A stretch of DNA of 64,000 bases from Limnochordia bacterium (GCA_041686855.1 JAWLDA010000001.1:111700-175699); one strand, 5' to 3'. Shown: positions 35,701 to 60,804, counted from the stretch's first letter. The notes: generated by a model not told the origin, from the letters alone. A program made the numbers and translations.

Positions 35701-37644
35701 ATGAGCGTGCCCTACGATGAAAGGCTCTGGACCAAGCACGAGGATCCCATTGCCGATTCCCTCGAAAGACTACCCCACCTGCAGCTAAGGGAGTACCCGG
35801 AGCGGCTTGAAGCGTTTTGGGCGCTCTTCGAAGATGTGCAACTTGACGGCGTGGCCGTCTGCCCGAACCTGCGGATGCCGGCCCGCGATGGCGTCGGCCT
35901 TGGGTGTGACATCTACGTGCCGGCCCGCAGCGGTCTACCTCTACCGGGACCGTGGCCGGTCGTCTTGGAGCGTACACCCTATGGGAAAGACCGAGCCGGA
36001 CAGGTGATGACGGCTCGGCATCTCGTCAAGTCGGGATACGCCGTCATCATTCAAGACGTGCGCGGTCGATACGCCTCGGAAGGTCAATTTTACGCCTTCG
36101 GTGACGAGGGGCTTGATGGTTACGACACCATCGCGTGGATTCAGTCCCAACCGTGGTGCAACGGCAAAGTCGGCACAATGGGAATATCGTATGCCGGAGC
36201 GACACAGACGGCCGCCGCTGCAACGAATCCCCCCGGACTCGCCGCTCAGATTGTGACGCAAGGACCGTTTAACTATCACACGGGCTCGATGCGTCAAGGC
36301 GGGTGCCTGGAGCAGCGCTTTTACGCGTATGCGTTTCGCATGGCCAAAGAGAGTCGGGAGGCTATGGCGGACGCTGGATTGCGCAGCGCACTGGAGGCGA
36401 GTTTTGAGGACGTGGAGAGTTGGTTGCTGAGGGCGCCGATCCGCCCGGGAGCGACGCCGCTGGCCCGCATTCCTTCATATGAGGCGTGGGTGAAGGATCT
36501 GTACACACATGGGAGCTTCGACGAGTACTGGCAACGCCCGGGTTACACCGTCGAGCCGTTCCTCGACAACCATGCAGACGCACCGACCATCTTCTTGGGT
36601 AGCTGGTACGACAGTTATGCACGCAATACGTGCGATAGTTTTGTTGAGCTCTCCAAGCGAAAGAAAGGGCCGTTTAAGCTCATCATGGGTCCGTGGCTGC
36701 ACGGGAAGGTGAACACGGAGGTGAGCGGCGACGTCGGCTTTGGTTCTCACGCCGTCCTTGGATACGACACCCTTCACAAACGGTGGTACGATGCGGTGCT
36801 GAAAGGCGACGATGACGGAATCCTTTCGGAGCCGCCCGTGAAAATCTTTGTGATGGGCGGCGGGAGCGGTCGCAAACGCCTCGACGGCCACCTCGATCAC
36901 GGGGGACGCTGGCGATTTGAGAATGAATGGCCGCCGGCTCGGTCGGTGAACACGCCTTTTTACATCCACGCAGGCGGAAGGTTGAGCGTTGATCCACCGG
37001 CGATAGACCCGGAAGCGGTTGAAGCGAAGACGGTCTACGCGTTTGACCCTGAGCGTCCGGTCCCCACCATTGGGGGGTGTTTGTCGGCAGCGGACGATAT
37101 CATGCCGCCGGGAGGCTTTGATCAGACGGCGCATCTCGGGATGTTGGGCGCCGAGGACGAGCTCCCTCTTGCCGCTCGAGCAGACGTGCTCGTCTTCCAA
37201 ACCGACGTGTTGGAGCGAGACGTGGAAGTGACCGGTCCAATCCACGTTAAACTCTACGTTTCATCGGACGCGGTGGATACGGACTTCACGGCGAAGCTAA
37301 TCGACGTGTACCCGCCCAACCCCGACTACCCGCTGGGGTACGCGCTGAACATACAGGACGGCATTCAACGAATGCGCTATCGAGAGGATCGCAGCCGTGA
37401 GGTGTTCATGACACCGGGAGACGTTTACGAAGTGACAATCTCGTTGTATCCGACAAGCAACCTCTTTGTGGCCGGCCACAAGATTCGCCTCGACATCTCG
37501 AGCAGCAACTTTCCACGTTTTGACGTCAACCCCAACACCGGTGATCCGTTGGGCCAACATCGACGGTACCGAGTGGCGGAGAACACCGTGTGGCACGCAC
37601 AGGGAAGGGCGTCTCACGTGGTCCTGCCCATCGTACCTGCATAG
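35701..37644 (+). CDS. CocE/NonD family hydrolase (S15 X-Pro dipeptidyl-peptidase-like alpha/beta hydrolase)
   Basis: LERTPYGK...GYAVIIQDVRGRYASEG...GYDTIAWI...GKVGTMGISYAG motifs. C-terminal beta-sandwich domain. Confidence 0.8.
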   Translation: MSVPYDERLWTKHEDPIADSLERLPHLQLREYPERLEAFWALFEDVQLDGVAVCPNLRMPARDGVGLGCDIYVPARSGLPLPGPWPVVLERTPYGKDRAGQVMTARHLVKSGYAVIIQDVRGRYASEGQFYAFGDEGLDGYDTIAWIQSQPWCNGKVGTMGISYAGATQTAAAATNPPGLAAQIVTQGPFNYHTGSMRQGGCLEQRFYAYAFRMAKESREAMADAGLRSALEASFEDVESWLLRAPIRPGATPLARIPSYEAWVKDLYTHGSFDEYWQRPGYTVEPFLDNHADAPTIFLGSWYDSYARNTCDSFVELSKRKKGPFKLIMGPWLHGKVNTEVSGDVGFGSHAVLGYDTLHKRWYDAVLKGDDDGILSEPPVKIFVMGGGSGRKRLDGHLDHGGRWRFENEWPPARSVNTPFYIHAGGRLSVDPPAIDPEAVEAKTVYAFDPERPVPTIGGCLSAADDIMPPGGFDQTAHLGMLGAEDELPLAARADVLVFQTDVLERDVEVTGPIHVKLYVSSDAVDTDFTAKLIDVYPPNPDYPLGYALNIQDGIQRMRYREDRSREVFMTPGDVYEVTISLYPTSNLFVAGHKIRLDISSSNFPRFDVNPNTGDPLGQHRRYRVAENTVWHAQGRASHVVLPIVPA

Positions 37645-37679
37645 ATTGTGTCGTTGCGCGTTACGGTCAAGAGTCATAT

Positions 37680-37985
37680 CACCTGCAGGCCGACGTCCGG
37701 CCGCCAGCTGACGTCCGGCTGTAGGCGGACCTCTGGCCATAGACGGGACTCACGACGGCTGCAGACCGACTTTCGGCTGCAGGCGGGACTCACGACGGCT
37801 GCAGACTGACTTTCGGCCGCAGGCGGGACTCAGGGCGCCCGAAGACCATCTTTAGGCTACAGGCGGGACTCACGACGCCCGAAGACCATCTTGTGGCGGT
37901 AAGCTGTCAACTGGCTGCAGGCTGACGTCCATTCTTAGACGGGAGTCACGACGACTGCGAGCTGATTCGGTGGCAAGCGGCCTCC
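37680..37985. repeat. degenerate ~38-40 bp tandem repeat, ~5 copies, core RGRCGGGACTCACGACG
   Basis: Cores at ~37742, 37780, 37820, 37860 and 37938. The variable halves are pairwise similar. Not CRISPR-like: no uniform spacers. Confidence 0.7.
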
Positions 37986-37990
37986 GGCCA

Positions 37991-38760
37991 AGCAAGGTGC
38001 CGAAATGGCGACTGATGCCCTTCTTGCGGGGAGTGATTGCACAAGGACGAGGAATCGCCCCCCACCAGAAAGGCAACAACGCCGTGTTTGCCCCGATTTT
38101 CGCCGGATTGTCGTGTCTGGGCGCGACGTCAAACGGATGGCGTGCAGGTGTACGTGTAGGGCATGATCCAAACGGCCAGCTAGGAGCGCTGACCGTTTTC
38201 CACGGATGCGCGCCAATTTCAAGCAAGGTGCCGAAATGGCGGCTGATGCCCTTCTTACGGGGAGTGATTACACAAGGGCGAGGAATCGCCCCCCACCAGA
38301 AAGGCAACAACGCCGTTTTCGTCCCGATTTTCGTCGGATCTAACGTCTGGTCGCTACGTCAAACGGATGGCGTGCAGGTGGACGTACAGGGCATGATCCA
38401 AACGGCCAGCTAGGAGCGCTGACCGTTTTCCACGGATGCGCGCCAATTTCAAGCAAGGTGCCGAAATGGCGGCTGATACCCTTCTTGCGGGGAGTGATTG
38501 CACACGGACGAGGAATCGCCCCCCACCAGAAAGGCAACAACGCCGTTTTCGTCCCGATTTTCGCCGGATCGTGGCGTCCGGGCGCGACGTCAAACGGATG
38601 GCGTGCAGGTGGATGTGCAGGTGGACGTGTAGGGTATGATCCAAACGGCCAGCTAGGAGCGTTGGCCGATTTCCACGGATGTGCGTCGATTTTAAGCAAG
38701 GTGCCGAAATGGCGGCTGATGCCCTTCATGCAGGGAGTCATTGCTCATGAACGAGGAATC
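37991..38760. repeat. ~230-243 bp tandem repeat, 3.3 copies, ~95% identical, last copy degenerate
   Basis: Copies start at ~37991, 38222, 38452 and 38695 with AAGCAAGGTGCCGAAATGGCG. Each copy contains AAGGTG-N6-ATG plus a 35-57 codon Arg-rich ORF. Periods 231/230/243 are not all multiples of 3. Confidence 0.8.
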
Positions 38761-38843
38761 TTCTAATAGACCCAAAAGCACTGAGAGCGTGGATACTGGT
38801 TCAACTGTGAGTTCAAAGTCTTTACCTAGTGACCAGACGGAAC

Positions 38844-39020
38844 CTCGGAGTCTGGAAACCTGGGAGTCTCGGAACCCCGGAGTCTGGAAACCTGGGAGTC
38901 TCGGAACCTCGGAGTCTCGGAACCCCGGAATCTCGGAACCCCGGAATCTCCGAACCCTGGAATCTCCGAACCCCGGAATTCCGGAATCTCCGAACCCCGA
39001 AACCTCGAAGCCTCGAAGCA
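38844..39020. repeat. ~16-bp microsatellite (GGAATCTCSGAACCCY / GGAGTCTCGGAACCYC), ~11 copies
   Basis: Direct head-to-tail 16-bp periodicity seen in sequence. Low-complexity ORFs on both strands are considered artefacts. Confidence 0.75.
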
Positions 39021-39181
39021 GCGATTTTCGCCTCCATGTTTCGACCAGTCCCGGTAAATACCCAAAAGCTTTTAGAAAGACAAGGAAGAACTGGTCCGTA
39101 GGAGAAAAGTGACAAACAAGTGTATTGGGGGAAATTGCAACAAATCGACACCTACACTTCACAAAGGAGCGAGTCACTAAT

Positions 39182-40216
39182 ATGAAGGCCGGTATCGTTG
39201 GAACTGGTTGGGTTGCTGGCGAGCACGTAGCTGCCTATCAGGAGAATCCGCACATCGAAGTGAAGGGGATCGCCAGTCGCACCCGTGAAGGCGCCGAGGC
39301 TAAAGCTGCTGAATGGGGCTTCGACGGCAAGGTTTACGACACGGTCGACCAACTCATCGAAGATGACGAGATTAAGGTCGTCTCCATCTGTTCGCCACCG
39401 GATGTTCACGCCGAACAGGTCATCAAGTGTGCCCAGGCCGGCAAGCATGTTGTCATTGAGAAGCCTGTCGCCCTCACCCGTGAGGATGTATGGGCCATGG
39501 AAGAGGCCGTCGCCAAAGCGGGCGTCAAGAGCGTCGTCAGCTTCGTGCTACGGTGGAATCCACTCTTTGAAACGATCAAGGCTTTGTTGGCGGACGGTGC
39601 GCTCGGCAATGTCTTTTACTCCGAGTCTGACTATTGGCACTGGGTAGGGCCGCACTACAAACAGTATCACTGGGCCAAGACCAAGAAGGCCGGCGGGAGC
39701 AGCTTGCTCTCTGCGGGTGTTCACGCTGTCGATGCGCTCCGGTGGTTCTCCGGTGAGATTGTCGAAGTGAGTGGATACTCCGCGCCCAAGTGGGAGGGCT
39801 CCGACTACGAATTTGATCCTAATATCGTAGCTGCTCTCAAGTTCGAAAACGGTGCGATCGGCAAAGTCTCGTCGTCGCTGGAGTGCCAAACGCCTTACAT
39901 CTTCAACATTCAACTCATGGGTGACCAAGGCACGTTGCGCAACAACAAGCTCTTTAGTAAGTCCAAGCTGCCGGGGCAGACGGATTACGCCGAGATTCCG
40001 ACGATCCTGCCTGACAGCGGTGACGTGACACATCACCCGTTCAAGGGCCAGATCAACCACTTTGTTGAGTGCATCCTGGAGAATAAGGAGTCGCACTGCA
40101 ACTTAGCCGATGCTGCCAAGAGCATGGATGTCTGCTTCGCAATTGACGAATCCATTGCCACCGGCCGACCGGTGAAGCTTCCGCTGGACCGTTCGAGTGA
40201 GAGGGTTGGAGCGTGA
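39182..40216 (+). CDS. Gfo/Idh/MocA family oxidoreductase
   Basis: MKAGIVGTGWVAGEHVAAY Rossmann motif. IEKPVA motif. AAGGAG 13 bp upstream of Met20. Confidence 0.85.
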   Translation: MKAGIVGTGWVAGEHVAAYQENPHIEVKGIASRTREGAEAKAAEWGFDGKVYDTVDQLIEDDEIKVVSICSPPDVHAEQVIKCAQAGKHVVIEKPVALTREDVWAMEEAVAKAGVKSVVSFVLRWNPLFETIKALLADGALGNVFYSESDYWHWVGPHYKQYHWAKTKKAGGSSLLSAGVHAVDALRWFSGEIVEVSGYSAPKWEGSDYEFDPNIVAALKFENGAIGKVSSSLECQTPYIFNIQLMGDQGTLRNNKLFSKSKLPGQTDYAEIPTILPDSGDVTHHPFKGQINHFVECILENKESHCNLADAAKSMDVCFAIDESIATGRPVKLPLDRSSERVGA

Positions 40217-41502
40217 GTTCGGCCGTGCCGCAACGCGGAGACCAATCGCAGACCGCTGCGGCTATTGACGCGTGGGTCGACTCACACCGGGACGAGTTGC
40301 TGCGCGTCATGGGCGATCTGATTCAGATTCCGACGGAGAATCGACCGCCTGTCGGCGAGGAGCTCGAAGGGCAGCTATACTTCAAGAAGCTCCTTGAGCA
40401 GCACGGGGCCGAAACCGACCTCTTTTACCTGCACGATGTAGAAGGACTGGAGGAGCATCCGGTCTACTGGCCGGGGCGCGAGTACGCCAATAGACCCAAC
40501 GTTGTTGGACGGTTCCCGGGCAGCGGCGGCGGTCGGTCGCTTGGATTCTCGAGCCACATGGATACGGCGGCCCGTGATCCGTTGCCGTGGGAAGAGTCTG
40601 AACCGTTCTCAGGTGAAGTCAAAGGCGAGCGACTCTACGGCCGGGGTTCGTATGACATGAAAGCGGCCATGGTCTCGTCCCTCTTTGCAGTGAGGGCCGT
40701 GCGGGACCTGGGACTTCCGCAGCGCGGAGACGTCATCGTTGAGAGTGTAGTCGACGAGGAGTGGGGCGGCTCCAATGGAACACTAGCTGCCCGCCTGCGT
40801 GGGTACAACGCTGACGCCTTTGTGATCCCCGAGCCGAGTCACATGGTGATCTGCCCGGCACACCTTGGCGTCCGCCTCTTTCGGATCACGGTCCGTGGAC
40901 AGGACGGGATGCGCTTTGGTGGCGAGGGACTGGCCAATCCGGTCTTGGCAATCTCTCGTGTGATTCGCGCTTTTGAGGAGTTTGCGGCCACGCGTCAGTC
41001 GGCGCCGTTACCGCCAATCTACGCCGGCGGCAATCCGGCTCCCATCGACATTCAGGGCGTACATGCCGAAGGGTACGGTGTGCCGCGGGAGTGTACGCTC
41101 GACTTCAATGTGCACTGCATGTTGGGTGAGACGGAAGAGTCGTTGAACCGCTCCGTACAGCAGTTTGTGGAGTCGGTCAAGAGCCACCCTGACCTGCAGG
41201 GGGTCGAGATCAAACTCGAACCGACGTCTCGATTCATTGAGCCGACGTCGATTGGCGCCGATCACCCCATCGTCGCTTGCGCATCAGACGCGATGAGCGA
41301 GGTCCCAGGTCGGGAGGTCGTGGTTAGGGGCGCCCCCTTCGCCTGTGACGGGTTCGTCTTTAACAGGCACTCGCCGAGCCCCGCGCTCATACTGGGACCG
41401 GGCGGCGCACGTGCGCATGCGGCCGACGAGTTCGCTCTCGTTGAGGATCTCGTCGATTTGGGGCGGGTGTACGCGCGGATGATCACATCGTGGTGTGGCT
41501 AA
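40213..41502 (+). CDS. M20 family metallopeptidase (ArgE/DapE/acetylornithine-deacetylase-like)
   Basis: SHMDTA and GRGSYDMKAA motifs, DEEWGGSNG segment. GTGA overlap with the preceding Gfo gene. Confidence 0.8.
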   Translation: MSSAVPQRGDQSQTAAAIDAWVDSHRDELLRVMGDLIQIPTENRPPVGEELEGQLYFKKLLEQHGAETDLFYLHDVEGLEEHPVYWPGREYANRPNVVGRFPGSGGGRSLGFSSHMDTAARDPLPWEESEPFSGEVKGERLYGRGSYDMKAAMVSSLFAVRAVRDLGLPQRGDVIVESVVDEEWGGSNGTLAARLRGYNADAFVIPEPSHMVICPAHLGVRLFRITVRGQDGMRFGGEGLANPVLAISRVIRAFEEFAATRQSAPLPPIYAGGNPAPIDIQGVHAEGYGVPRECTLDFNVHCMLGETEESLNRSVQQFVESVKSHPDLQGVEIKLEPTSRFIEPTSIGADHPIVACASDAMSEVPGREVVVRGAPFACDGFVFNRHSPSPALILGPGGARAHAADEFALVEDLVDLGRVYARMITSWCG

Positions 41503-41525
41503 ATGAAGAGCGCGGATAATTGAAG

Positions 41526-41578
41526 GGCGCTGACGTGGAATGGCACTGACGAGGGCGCTGACGTGGAATGGCGCTGAT
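41526..41578 (+). promoter_or_regulatory. 24-bp direct repeat x2 (GGGCGCTGACGTGGAATGGCRCTGA) upstream of hypothetical gene
   Basis: Two near-identical copies separated by 4 bp, 20-70 bp upstream of the 41596 start. Candidate regulator binding site. Confidence 0.35.
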
Positions 41579-41595
41579 GAAGAAGGGCTCGTGAG

Positions 41596-42762
41596 ATGAC
41601 GATCAATGCGTGTATTCCTATCGCCGTTCAGGTGGTGATCGACGACGTCGGCTGGTGGTCGGGCGCGAACGATAGTGAGCGGGGCGGTCCCTACCGCACG
41701 GGTATCGATCGGGATCACGTACCCGCAGATTACGAAGCGATCGTTGAGTTAGGCAGGCGGCTCGGGGTGCGTCCCCAGGCCGCCCTCATCCTGTGTGAAT
41801 GGGACCGGACAAACATATTGCGCAATCTCCCGACAGCAACGTGGATGGGCGCAGCATGGGATAATCGCAAGTGGGTCGGACCGTGGCTCGAGGAAGCGGC
41901 TCGCATCATGGGCGAGAACTCCGAGTACATAGAGTTGACGCTTCACGGCATCGGACACGAGTACTGGCAGGACGGCGCCTTTACCCGGGCGGAATGGTAC
42001 GATTCCGAGTATCGCATGCGTCCGGAGTCCGATGTACGAGCGCGACTCGAGCTCTTTGCCGAAATCATGCGGCAGAATGAGTTGGGACCTCTCCCGACCT
42101 CAATGGTGCCCCCTGCCTACAAATACCGCTTTCGTGATCCGAGCGGGTTTGCCTCGATGATGCGTGAGAACGGCATCCAAAGCGTTACGACGGTGACCCC
42201 GCACATGCTGAAGCACACCGGGCAAACGATGGAATCGCCCTGGTTTGGCATCGACGCCGGCCTCCTCATCGTTGAGTGGGGAGCGTCGGTGACGGGGCGG
42301 GGAGGCACCCTTCCCTGGTACGTGATCGAGCCCGACCTGTCGGAGACACGTGAAGTGGAAGGGCCGACCCTGGGACTTCACTGGCCCAACCTTCTTCACA
42401 CGGATCCGGCGCGCAACTCCGAGGTGATCGACCGGTGGGTGGCGTATCTTGGAGGGTATCGTGACCGCTTTGATCGGATGCTCGCCCGGGACTCAGTCCA
42501 ATGCCACACGCAGCTTTTGTATCAGTGGGGAACGGACGTAAGGGTCGACGACGAGCGCACGGTCCATTGCGATTTCACCCGTCTAGACCAGCTTGGCTAC
42601 CAAGGGCTAGGCGATGAGTTTGTCTTGCGCGTCGAGACGCCGCGTACAGCCTCTCGTACACTGCGATTTGCAGCAGATCTGAGCGCGACGCCTGTGGGAG
42701 ACGGAGCCGCAGGCGGGTTTGCATCCTTTAGAGTCCGGCGGCGCCAAGGCGCGGGAGCGTGA
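41596..42762 (+). CDS. hypothetical protein (Trp-rich, HGIGHEYW motif); no family recognised
   Basis: 388-aa ORF with good codon usage, sitting between the M20 and Gfo genes. I could not assign a family from sequence alone. Confidence 0.6.
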   Translation: MTINACIPIAVQVVIDDVGWWSGANDSERGGPYRTGIDRDHVPADYEAIVELGRRLGVRPQAALILCEWDRTNILRNLPTATWMGAAWDNRKWVGPWLEEAARIMGENSEYIELTLHGIGHEYWQDGAFTRAEWYDSEYRMRPESDVRARLELFAEIMRQNELGPLPTSMVPPAYKYRFRDPSGFASMMRENGIQSVTTVTPHMLKHTGQTMESPWFGIDAGLLIVEWGASVTGRGGTLPWYVIEPDLSETREVEGPTLGLHWPNLLHTDPARNSEVIDRWVAYLGGYRDRFDRMLARDSVQCHTQLLYQWGTDVRVDDERTVHCDFTRLDQLGYQGLGDEFVLRVETPRTASRTLRFAADLSATPVGDGAAGGFASFRVRRRQGAGA

Positions 42763-59161: not shown

Positions 59162-60804
59162 TGATGGCCAAACGAGAGCGAACGAGAGCGGTGCGACGAG
59201 AGAAGCCGTTGACGTGGGAAGAGGTACGCTCCCGAAACTCGGTCGAACGGATCAAGCACGAGAAGCAACCGTTCGACCTGATCGACGAGCTACCCCGATT
59301 GGCCGAGACGCCTTACGAGGCCATTGATGAAAACGACATCCTGCGCCTACAGTGGTGGGGACTCTACCACGACAAGCCCAAGATCGGGCACTTTATGATG
59401 CGAGTGAAGATCCCCGGGGGCGTCCTGACGGCTGAGCAGCTGCGCGTGATTGGTCGCCTCTCGGTCGAATTCGGTCAAAATAAAGGCGAGCTCACCACCA
59501 GACAGTGCATTCAACTGCACAACATCGAACTCCCCAACTTGCCGGAGATCTTCCAGATCATGAAAGAGGCGGAGCTCACGACAGCCGGGGCGTGCGGAGA
59601 TATCCTGCGTAACATCACGAGCTGCCCCGTAGCCGGAATCGATCCTCATGAACTCTTTGACACCCGCCCCGTGATCGACGAATTGGCCGCTTTCTTCTAC
59701 GGCAATCGGGAGTACAGCGATCTCCCGCGCAAGCACAAGTGGACCCTAGCGGCCTGCCCACACCACTGCAATGTACCGGAGATTCACGATATCGGCTTGA
59801 TCGGTACGGTACAGGACGGGGAGGTCGGCTTTGCCATCACAGTCGGCGGTGGACTCTCTACAGCGCCGCGCATCGCTCAGTCCTTTGGCGTCTTTGTCCG
59901 ACCCGAAGAGGCGCGGGAGGTGCTTCAGGGCCTCCTCGACATTTGGAGTAACGATCTGACCTACCGCCGATCCCGCGGTAAGGCTCGGTTTAAGTTTATG
60001 GTCGACGATCACGGTCCCGACGGTGTGCGCGAGCGCCTCGAATCACACCTGGGACGTGCGCTCACCCCTCTCAAGGAGGCGCCAACGCCGATCGGACGCA
60101 CCGATCACATGGGAGTGCACGCCCAAAAGCAACAAGGACTGCACTACATCGGCTTCCCCGTCTTCCCCGGACTCATCACCGGTGAGCAAATGATGGCGGT
60201 AGCGGAGATTCTCGCGGAGTACGGCAACGATTTTCGCATCACCCGCGAGCAAAACTTCATCCTCACCGGAATTGCCACGGCCGACGTGGAGCAGGTAATC
60301 GCCCGGATGGCTGCGCTCGGCTTCTCGCTTGACGTCAACCCCGTGCGCGGTCACAGCATCGGCTGCACCGGCAATCCCTACTGCAACTTTGCCGTGGGCG
60401 AGACCAAGCCGCGCCTCGTCCGCCTCATTGATCACTTGGAGGCGCGATTTGGCGAGGCCATCGCCGACTTGCGCTTTCATCTCGACGGCTGCCCCCATGC
60501 CTGCGGTCAGCATTTCATCGGAGACATCGGTTTTCAAGGGACCACCAAGCGCACTGACGATGGCAAGATTCAGGCGTATGACATTTTCCTTCGGGGCGGT
60601 ATGGGCAAAGAGGCTGCGATCGGCAAACCGATTTTGCGCCGGGTCGCTACCGATGACTTGGAGCTTTACGTGGAGCGGCTCCTCTCACTTTACCTGAGTG
60701 AGCGGCGTTCTGAGGAGACGCTTCAGCAGTTTTGCGCCGCCAAGAGTGACGAGGAGATCGTCGCTGTCATGGAAGGCGCGCTCTCCGAAAGGAGCGTAGG
60801 CTGA
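59161..60804 (+). CDS. sir: ferredoxin-dependent sulfite reductase (siroheme hemoprotein, NirA/Sir family)
   Basis: Nitrite/sulfite reductase ferredoxin-like half-domains and siroheme-Fe4S4 Cys cluster (CPHAC...C motifs). GGAAGGAG 6 bp before ATG. Confidence 0.85.
   Translation: MMAKRERTRAVRREKPLTWEEVRSRNSVERIKHEKQPFDLIDELPRLAETPYEAIDENDILRLQWWGLYHDKPKIGHFMMRVKIPGGVLTAEQLRVIGRLSVEFGQNKGELTTRQCIQLHNIELPNLPEIFQIMKEAELTTAGACGDILRNITSCPVAGIDPHELFDTRPVIDELAAFFYGNREYSDLPRKHKWTLAACPHHCNVPEIHDIGLIGTVQDGEVGFAITVGGGLSTAPRIAQSFGVFVRPEEAREVLQGLLDIWSNDLTYRRSRGKARFKFMVDDHGPDGVRERLESHLGRALTPLKEAPTPIGRTDHMGVHAQKQQGLHYIGFPVFPGLITGEQMMAVAEILAEYGNDFRITREQNFILTGIATADVEQVIARMAALGFSLDVNPVRGHSIGCTGNPYCNFAVGETKPRLVRLIDHLEARFGEAIADLRFHLDGCPHACGQHFIGDIGFQGTTKRTDDGKIQAYDIFLRGGMGKEAAIGKPILRRVATDDLELYVERLLSLYLSERRSEETLQQFCAAKSDEEIVAVMEGALSERSVG

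Follow-up and report, generated by a model that had tools for sequence, protein, structure and literature searches.

A probable nested minisatellite with a 40-bp higher-order repeat in a lineage-specific intergenic spacer of a Limnochordia bacterium

Analysis of a 64,000-nucleotide stretch of the genome of a Limnochordia bacterium (hereafter the window) revealed a degenerate tract of tandem repeats behind a gene for a CocE/NonD family hydrolase. The tract is an instance of a known feature, the bacterial intergenic minisatellite, which here has a higher-order structure and contains an unevenly conserved box. On balance, we take it to be a non-coding, lineage-specific product of slippage that has no dedicated sequence-specific function. 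Its periods are nested, neighbouring copies are near-twins, only one locus is known, no functional signature was found and the same dispensable spacer contains two further arrays, unrelated to it; all of this points to a minisatellite formed by slippage or unequal recombination. The tract is restricted to one lineage and displays no coding, RNA-structure, CRISPR or dispersed-element signature in the searches described below.

Results

Anatomy of the repeat tract

A search of the 64 kb with the core GGCGGGACTCACGACG, allowing up to 3 mismatches, returned 6 matches, against 1.57 expected by chance and a count that none of 100 shuffles reached. The sixth match, at position 59568 with 3 mismatches, is intragenic, while the other 5 lie in the tract, all on the + strand:

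37742 to 37757, + strand: core copy 1, GACGGGACTCACGACG, 1 mismatch
37782 to 37797, + strand: core copy 2, GGCGGGACTCACGACG, exact, 0 mismatches
37822 to 37837, + strand: core copy 3, GGCGGGACTCAGGGCG, 2 mismatches
37862 to 37877, + strand: core copy 4, GGCGGGACTCACGACG, exact, 0 mismatches
37938 to 37953, + strand: core copy 5, GACGGGAGTCACGACG, 2 mismatches, flanks strongly diverged

The start-to-start spacing of the cores is 40, 40, 40 and 76 bp, three non-core units (19 + 17 + 18 bp) lying between copies 4 and 5. TRF reported a period of 40 at 37744-37892 (3.3-3.7 copies, 84-86% matches, score 186-191), and autocorrelation over 37680-37995 gave 56% matches at lag 40 (z 10.6), with z 8.4 at lag 80 and z 5.3 at lag 18. 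The core search, TRF and autocorrelation thus confirmed the original prediction of five cores in a degenerate ~40-bp tandem repeat. Its first and last core positions (37742 and 37938) were exact, whereas 37780, 37820 and 37860 each fell 2 bp short of the observed 37782, 37822 and 37862, and the core measured 16 nt instead of the proposed 17 bp. Since an independent short-read contig (L026) of a sister metagenome-assembled genome (MAG), GCA_041685055.1, carries an array that matches the window base for base, an assembly artefact is excluded.

Parsing of the sequence on either side of the cores extended the repeat and resolved two levels of organization:

37689 to 37992, unstranded: full degenerate repeat tract, 16 head-to-tail units of 15-23 bp (parsing, MAFFT unit alignment, autocorrelation)
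37742 to 37901, unstranded: four 40-bp higher-order copies (22 + 18) of two subtypes (TRF, repeat-family search, mismatch table)

Each of the 16 units ends at its 3′ side with (C/T/A)AG, and their MAFFT alignment yields the consensus RCNGACNTC[ACGA]CGGCTGCAG. Five units are of a 22-23-bp "core" type with a 4-nt insertion, and the remaining ones measure 15-19 bp. The left flank taken by itself (37680-37745) displays 67% matches at lag 18 (z 5.6), which, together with the consensus shared by the 16 pieces, indicates that the tract is an old, decayed ~18-bp repeat. The 40-bp unit is a higher-order repeat and not the basic one, and the nested structure suggests that the 22+18 dimer was amplified four times at a later stage.

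The four 40-bp copies fall into two subtypes according to their variable half, which is GCTGCAGACYGACTTTCGGCYGCA in units 1 and 2 and starts with CCCGAAGACCATCTT in units 3 and 4, the latter sequence having 2 exact occurrences. Units 1 and 2 differ at 3/40 positions and units 3 and 4 at 7/40, compared with 10-12/40 between types, in agreement with the earlier remark that the variable halves resemble each other pairwise. Such near-twin neighbours, set against a larger divergence between types, form the pattern of recent local duplications. As in minisatellites, the units are head-to-tail, imperfect, non-coding and within 10-100 bp (TRF period 40 x 3.7, sub-periods 18 and 22).

Genomic context

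Behind the CocE/NonD gene, which ends at 37644, come the start of the tract at 37689 and that of the first core at 37742. The whole tract lies within a gene-free spacer of 1,537 bp (37645-39181), whose surroundings are organized as follows:

35701 to 37644, + strand: upstream gene, CocE/NonD family hydrolase (Peptidase_S15 + PepX_C in Pfam; NCBIfam TIGR00976, 396 bits)
37989 to 38760, unstranded: neighbouring array of ~230 bp x 3.3, start-to-start 231, 230 and 243 bp (TRF, alignment)
38838 to 39020, unstranded: third array, 16-bp unit with an 8-bp sub-period, CGGAACCCCGGAGTCT x 8.8, then CGAAGCCT x 2.8 (TRF, repeat-family search)
39060 to 39181, + strand: conserved ~120 bp 5′ of the downstream gene (blastn, 76% in the relatives' loci L029 and L072)
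39182 to 40216, + strand: downstream gene, Gfo/Idh/MocA oxidoreductase, 344 aa (Pfam, NCBIfam; exact protein in the sister MAG)

The CocE/NonD gene is the final one of a same-strand run that includes prpD, citrate synthase, PEP mutase/methylisocitrate lyase-like and enoyl-CoA hydratase genes. On the other side, the Gfo/Idh/MocA gene and the M20 peptidase gene behind it (40213-41502) share this strand. Among named homologues, those closest to the flanking genes come from Chloroflexota-type MAGs (Dehalococcoidia, Anaerolineae). The conserved block at 39060-39181 is probably the promoter and 5′ leader of the Gfo/Idh/MocA gene, and it forms the right-hand limit of the lineage-specific filler. It aligns at 76% with positions 2716-2834 of L029, the other surrounding intergenic DNA being unrelated. 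A 17-nt piece of this block, ACCCAAAAGCTTTTAGA, recurs in degenerate form at 38770-38786, by the right edge of the 230-bp array.

The 40-bp, 230-bp and 16-bp arrays have no similarity to one another or to the rest of the 64-kb window. The presence of two further, unrelated arrays in the spacer suggests that this stretch tolerates and accumulates slippage products. The 16-bp array is identical in the sister MAG; it contains 17 GGA in 183 nt, that is ~93 per kb versus ~22 per kb in the window, and it is traversed by an ORF (38741-39112) that has no family match.

Elsewhere in the window, the only other tandem array is a small repeat at 41522-41588, GGCGCTGACG(T/A)GGAAT x 4 (TRF period 28 x 1.9). 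It sits in a 93-bp spacer between the M20 peptidase gene and an ORF at 41596-42762, and is the same in the sister MAG. This 388-aa ORF is a called protein in the NCBI source genome and has no Pfam, NCBIfam or PDB sequence match. The motif GCTGACG, common to the tract and to this small repeat, was considered as a link between them and rejected, as it is frequent throughout the window.

Pfam assigned the ORFs of 200 aa or more in the 64 kb to sugar and organic-acid metabolism, ABC-transporter binding proteins, sulfate assimilation and four ordinary regulators; cas, rep, par, transposase and integrase genes were all missing from this set. The window also holds eleven Gfo/Idh/MocA-family genes, several xylose-isomerase-like TIM-barrel genes and several solute-binding protein genes. 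The GC content of the tract region (0.575-0.606) is like that of its surroundings, and the GC skew rises monotonically with no break at the tract.

Comparison with relatives

The sister MAG GCA_041685055.1, 99.77% identical over 3.9 kb, has the same array up to its contig end. Its contig L026 ends at 37933, 5 bp before the fifth core, and its contig L001 starts at ~38509, inside the 230-bp array; such breaks within the spacer indicate that the repeat cluster fragments short-read assemblies.

Two other lineages carry different DNA between the same genes. The first (L029/L072), found in four samples, shares 84% protein identity with the CocE/NonD hydrolase and 90% with the Gfo oxidoreductase. 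At the same spot it has a 404-aa Gfo/Idh/MocA gene and a 245-bp spacer, and of this DNA only the 120 bp directly before the 344-aa gene can be aligned to the window. We considered whether the repeats of the spacer could be the wreck of this 404-aa gene and rejected the idea, as tblastn and blastn gave no signal; a six-frame tblastn match extending past the conserved 120 bp was unsupported by DNA alignment.

In the second lineage (L027/L075, 81-85% protein identity), the hydrolase gene is followed by an orphan CRISPR-like repeat pair and then by a gene on the opposite strand. The pair, at 2085-2190 of L027, consists of two type I-E-like CRISPR repeats, GGCTCTCCCGCACGCGGGGATCGACCC and a degenerate copy, ~32 nt apart. 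This orphan mini-array lies directly past the stop of the 81%-identical CocE/NonD gene, at the position that matches the 40-bp array. No tandem repeats were found at the L029, L072, L027 and L075 loci. As these relatives carry other DNA without repeats, the repeat-filled spacer is specific to the window's own species, and the finding of three fillers in three lineages between the same conserved genes marks this site as a variable spot.

Coding, RNA, dispersed and mobile signatures

No ORF spans the 40-bp array, whose period is not divisible by 3, and Pfam returned nothing at E<=0.01 for the ORFs of the spacer. On neither strand does the folding energy of the tract stand out (z -0.54 on the + strand, -0.92 on the - strand). 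Rfam 15 gave no match in the window at the gathering threshold and only sub-threshold ones at E<=10, such as Chloroflexi-1 with 18.3 bits versus a gathering score of 80. No promoter-like or terminator-like site was found in 37400-39400.

Nor was any dispersal of the tract seen in the sequences scanned. The repeat search reported no inverted repeat within it, so that the stable stem-loop typical of REP/BIME elements is absent, and the 64-kb window contains the tract only once. The 18-mer CAGGCGGGACTCACGACG returned 24 single matches, in unrelated phyla, among 596 Gb of species-representative genomes, where ~17 were estimated by chance, and 42 single matches in a metagenome collection, while the 16-mer returned 22 single matches in viral contigs. 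Flanks of the genome and metagenome matches agreed with the unit at 7-19/44 positions, which is random. The sole matched locus with core-like copies nearby (L009) was rejected, being a 15-bp coding repeat. A core present at hundreds of genomic sites, which the original prediction had named as evidence against its view, was found neither in the 64-kb window nor in the genome, metagenome and viral scans. Phage, plasmid and viral collections contained nothing similar to the tract. Traits of the MIRU type are also absent, the tract occupying a single locus in the window, 45 nt past the stop codon and 1.19 kb before the next start.

Because GANTC occurs in the cores and core copy 5 bears a GACTC to GAGTC substitution, a role as methylation or restriction motif was considered. 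It was rejected: with 323 sites against ~235 expected, GANTC shows no depletion in the window, and its excess in the spacer arises because the repeats contain it. The counts of CTGCAG and GACGTC in the window are unremarkable.

The neighbouring 230-bp units

Each 230-bp unit comprises a ~75-nt imperfect palindrome and a second hairpin, with folding z values of -2.65 on the + strand and -3.78 on the - strand. No compensatory changes were seen among the few copies. The second hairpin is located at 38160-38214, 38390-38444 and 38633-38687, and at 112-166 of L001 in the sister MAG, where the copy may be a collapsed consensus. All 6 of its 6 paired-position substitutions are C-to-T on the + strand; they preserve G-U pairs, would fit a + strand RNA and include no double compensatory change.

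An exhaustive protein search with a spurious ORF that reads through two units retrieved one NCBI protein, P0246, from a single genome. P0246 is a 77-aa (231-bp) tandem repeat, and its best match is to the minus-strand translation of the ~75-nt palindrome (15/23 residues identical, E 2e-16). The hairpin module and the 231-bp period therefore recur in a second genome, which suggests, from the sequence comparison, that the 230-bp units represent an undescribed family of tandem hairpin elements. ORF 37970-38413 was rejected as a hidden gene, as it is a read-through of two 230-bp copies. An ATG-initiated frame (38005, 38236, 38466) was likewise rejected: the differences between its copies are mostly non-synonymous, and a stop follows after 13 codons in the last copy.

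The earlier suggestion that the short repeats seed the larger ones did not hold, with 27-31% ungapped identity between them and a local score of 17 versus a shuffle mean of 17.3. Having a distant relative of its own elsewhere and only chance-level similarity to the 40-bp tract, the 230-bp unit was not seeded by it. The view of the tract as a decayed copy of the 230-bp unit, or as its seed, was also rejected: the 62% "copy" at 37884-38109 scores through its part after 37989, and its portion within the 40-bp tract displays a random 27-31% identity.

Uneven conservation of the core and a possible binding array

Comparison of the two subtypes revealed that the core outconserves the remainder of the unit, with differences at 0/16 core positions and 10/24 other positions (hypergeometric P 0.0023). 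A permutation test over any 16-column window gave P 0.008 and a consensus-versus-consensus estimate gave P ~0.014, for a comparison made post hoc. Core copy 5 keeps 14-15/16 core positions while 13-18/24 flank positions differ in an ungapped comparison, a count inflated by indels in these flanks. No sparing of the core is seen within the two young pairs, with differences at 3/32 core positions compared with 7/48 elsewhere. The uneven divergence suggests either a constraint on the core or a homogenisation confined to it.

Because the core is spared beyond what plain neutral decay predicts, we kept as a rival, unlikely though worth retaining, an array of phased sites to which a sequence-specific DNA-binding protein would bind, either iteron- or centromere-like or serving as an upstream activating or roadblock platform. 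The original prediction had also put forward a protein-binding iteron array, a reading that is weakly motivated. It would consist of five direct 16-nt sites, the intervening 24 bp being freely drifting spacer. Four copies are spaced at exactly 40 bp, which would turn each candidate site ~70 degrees round the helix from its neighbour, and the tract abuts the 230-bp units with their conserved hairpin.

The architecture is reminiscent of F-plasmid sopC, in which 43-bp direct repeats x 12 each contain a 16-bp site, of the 11-20-bp direct repeats of R1 and pSK41 parC, and of iteron arrays. By analogy, the tract shares with these systems direct repeats of 18-43 bp, a conserved site of ~16 bp and a regular spacing. 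In contrast to the palindromic site of sopC, however, the core is non-palindromic, and it has no second site in the window. Replication-origin iterons are accompanied by an adjacent rep gene, an AT-rich unwinding element and DnaA boxes, and partition centromeres of the sopC, parC or parS type by neighbouring parA/parB or parM/parR genes and a repeat that includes the site bound by the adaptor. The tract differs from both by its chromosomal metabolic-gene context, without DnaA boxes; no rep, par or other candidate partner gene occurs among the ORFs of at least 200 aa scanned by Pfam in the 64 kb, the GC content of 0.575-0.606 shows no AT-rich dip, and the monotonic GC skew gives no origin signature. 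The regulators of the window (AraC, ROK, LacI and GntR) are at least 6.4 kb off, in other operons. The position of the array, upstream of the conserved promoter block and 1.3 kb away from the next start codon, also counts against this rival. Further evidence against binding sites comes from the two core substitutions of copy 3 and from the relatives, which lack the array except for one 99.8%-identical strain.

Less likely readings: import, composite locus or RNA element

Divergence in the variable halves reaches 42%, more than the ~23% nucleotide divergence of the flanking genes from L029, which has no array. The array is therefore either fast-evolving or imported. According to the second possibility, which we regard as improbable, the 1.4-kb block formed by the 40-bp, 230-bp and 16-bp arrays would be foreign or relocated DNA that arrived whole and replaced the relatives' gene, for instance as non-coding DNA belonging to a mobile element, a defence element or a non-coding RNA locus, the 40-bp array being a subterminal or accessory repeat. 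The three different fillers in three lineages and the lack of any tblastn or blastn trace of the 404-aa gene in the window are consistent with a replacement, and the relative P0246, with the same period in one other genome, suggests that at least the 230-bp part is not home-made. Nevertheless, the scanned ORFs of at least 200 aa include no transposase, integrase or other mobility gene, the repeat search showed neither terminal inverted repeats nor a target duplication, the phage, plasmid and viral collections gave no match, the GC content agrees with the surroundings, and the three arrays have no common sequence.

A composite locus, to which we assign a similarly low probability, would combine several of these elements. 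The 40-bp array would be its functional front end, with the five phased cores as candidate protein recognition sites, on DNA or on a read-through transcript, acting on the 230-nt units. The latter would belong to an undescribed family of tandemly arrayed RNA/DNA elements.

We consider very unlikely a role at the RNA level, in which a transcript of the array, attached to the 3′ end of the CocE/NonD mRNA or made together with the 230-nt units, would act as a repeated RNA. The models for it are the antitoxin (ToxI) of a type III toxin-antitoxin system and a multi-site sponge for an RNA-binding protein. The ToxI antitoxin has 36-nt repeats x 5.5, and type III arrays are followed by a terminator and a ToxN-family toxin gene. 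By analogy, the 40 nt x 4-5 of the array are within the range of ToxI, CptI and TenpI (tandem units of ~36-40 nt in 2-5.5 copies), and the lack of an intrinsic terminator between the upstream gene and the array makes read-through transcription plausible. Unlike toxIN, cptIN and tenpIN, however, the locus has no ToxN, CptN or TenpN-like gene downstream: the ORFs of the spacer have no Pfam match, and the one just 3′ of the array is the read-through of the 230-bp repeat. There is no terminator past the array in 37400-39400, the folding energy is no better than that of shuffles on either strand, and Rfam gave no match. A CsrA-type GGA sponge was also rejected, since the GGA density of the 40-bp tract is ordinary (19.7 per kb versus 22.4 per kb in the window). 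With no toxin gene, terminator or structure, an RNA role is unlikely.

Rejection of a degenerate or orphan CRISPR array

CRISPR arrays have repeats of ~23-55 nt and unique spacers of similar or greater length. The tract resembles them by its regular spacing, in which a better-conserved segment alternates with a more variable one, and in the L027 relative an orphan type I-E-like repeat pair follows the orthologous gene at this very position; that the tract is itself a degenerate or orphan CRISPR array can nonetheless be dismissed as next to impossible, since the 16-22-nt "repeats" and 18-24-nt "spacers" are below the known range, the "spacers" are mutually homologous (79-92% identical in pairs, ~58-70% between types), "repeats" and "spacers" alike derive by divergence from a single 18-bp unit, neither a palindromic stem in the repeat nor a leader is present, the core is unlike the L027 repeat in direct reading, and the ORFs of at least 200 aa scanned in the 64 kb include no cas gene. 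The original prediction had likewise set the array apart from CRISPR, and the short period, the duplicated "spacers" and this lack of cas genes bear it out.

Discussion

The tract is best compared with the intergenic minisatellites and VNTRs of bacteria, such as the MIRU-VNTR loci of Mycobacterium and those used for MLVA in Xanthomonas and Ralstonia. Like them, it consists of head-to-tail repeats of tens of bp flanked by same-strand genes, with imperfect copies, near-twin neighbours, an origin in slippage or unequal recombination, and broken short-read assemblies. MIRUs, in contrast, form a dispersed family at tens of loci, whereas the tract is known from one locus, and some MIRU units overlap the flanking stop and start codons, which the tract does not. 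It also differs from MIRUs in that its unit is a dimer of an older 18-bp unit and that its 16-nt box is unevenly conserved. The hallmark of VNTRs is copy-number polymorphism between strains; in the one other strain compared, which is 99.77% identical, the array is identical up to the contig end.

A second likeness is with eukaryotic alpha-satellite DNA and its CENP-B box, where diverged monomers also gave rise to an amplified higher-order unit and a short box is kept among drifting monomers. As the tract measures 304 bp and lies on a bacterial chromosome arm, this likeness is a pattern analogy only.

For the neutral minisatellite that we favour, the anatomy suggests the following history, in which the order of the duplication events, like the lack of function, is what we infer. 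An ancestor of ~18 bp, RCNGAC.TC.CGGCTGCAG, would have multiplied head to tail and then decayed. A 4-nt insertion in one unit would have brought it to 22 bp and created the unit that bears the present core. The 22+18 dimer of 40 bp would then have been amplified to four copies, arranged as two near-twin pairs. Slipped-strand mispairing during replication, unequal recombination of adjacent units, or both could have driven these steps; the nested structure, leading from 18 and 22 to 40 bp, fits the slipped-strand duplications that had been proposed as one origin of the array. The site would be dispensable DNA, in which relatives differ in content. The tract would act as a passive filler, probably crossed by read-through transcription, with the CocE/NonD transcription unit ending on one side and the conserved promoter region of the Gfo/Idh/MocA and M20 peptidase operon on the other.

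Two further considerations weigh against neutrality. Bacteria usually delete useless DNA, which counts against a neutral filler. In addition, the 230-bp unit apparently belongs to a conserved element family, judging from its match in another genome, and the spacer as a whole may therefore not be junk.

If the core were a binding site, the tract would represent a new protein-DNA recognition array, located beside a tandem hairpin element that recurs in another genome. If the tract is a plain minisatellite, it would be a potential strain-typing (VNTR) marker for an uncultured lineage and a documented cause of contig breaks in the short-read MAGs of this lineage. It would also provide a clean, small bacterial example of higher-order repeat evolution, from 18 bp through 22+18 to 40 bp.
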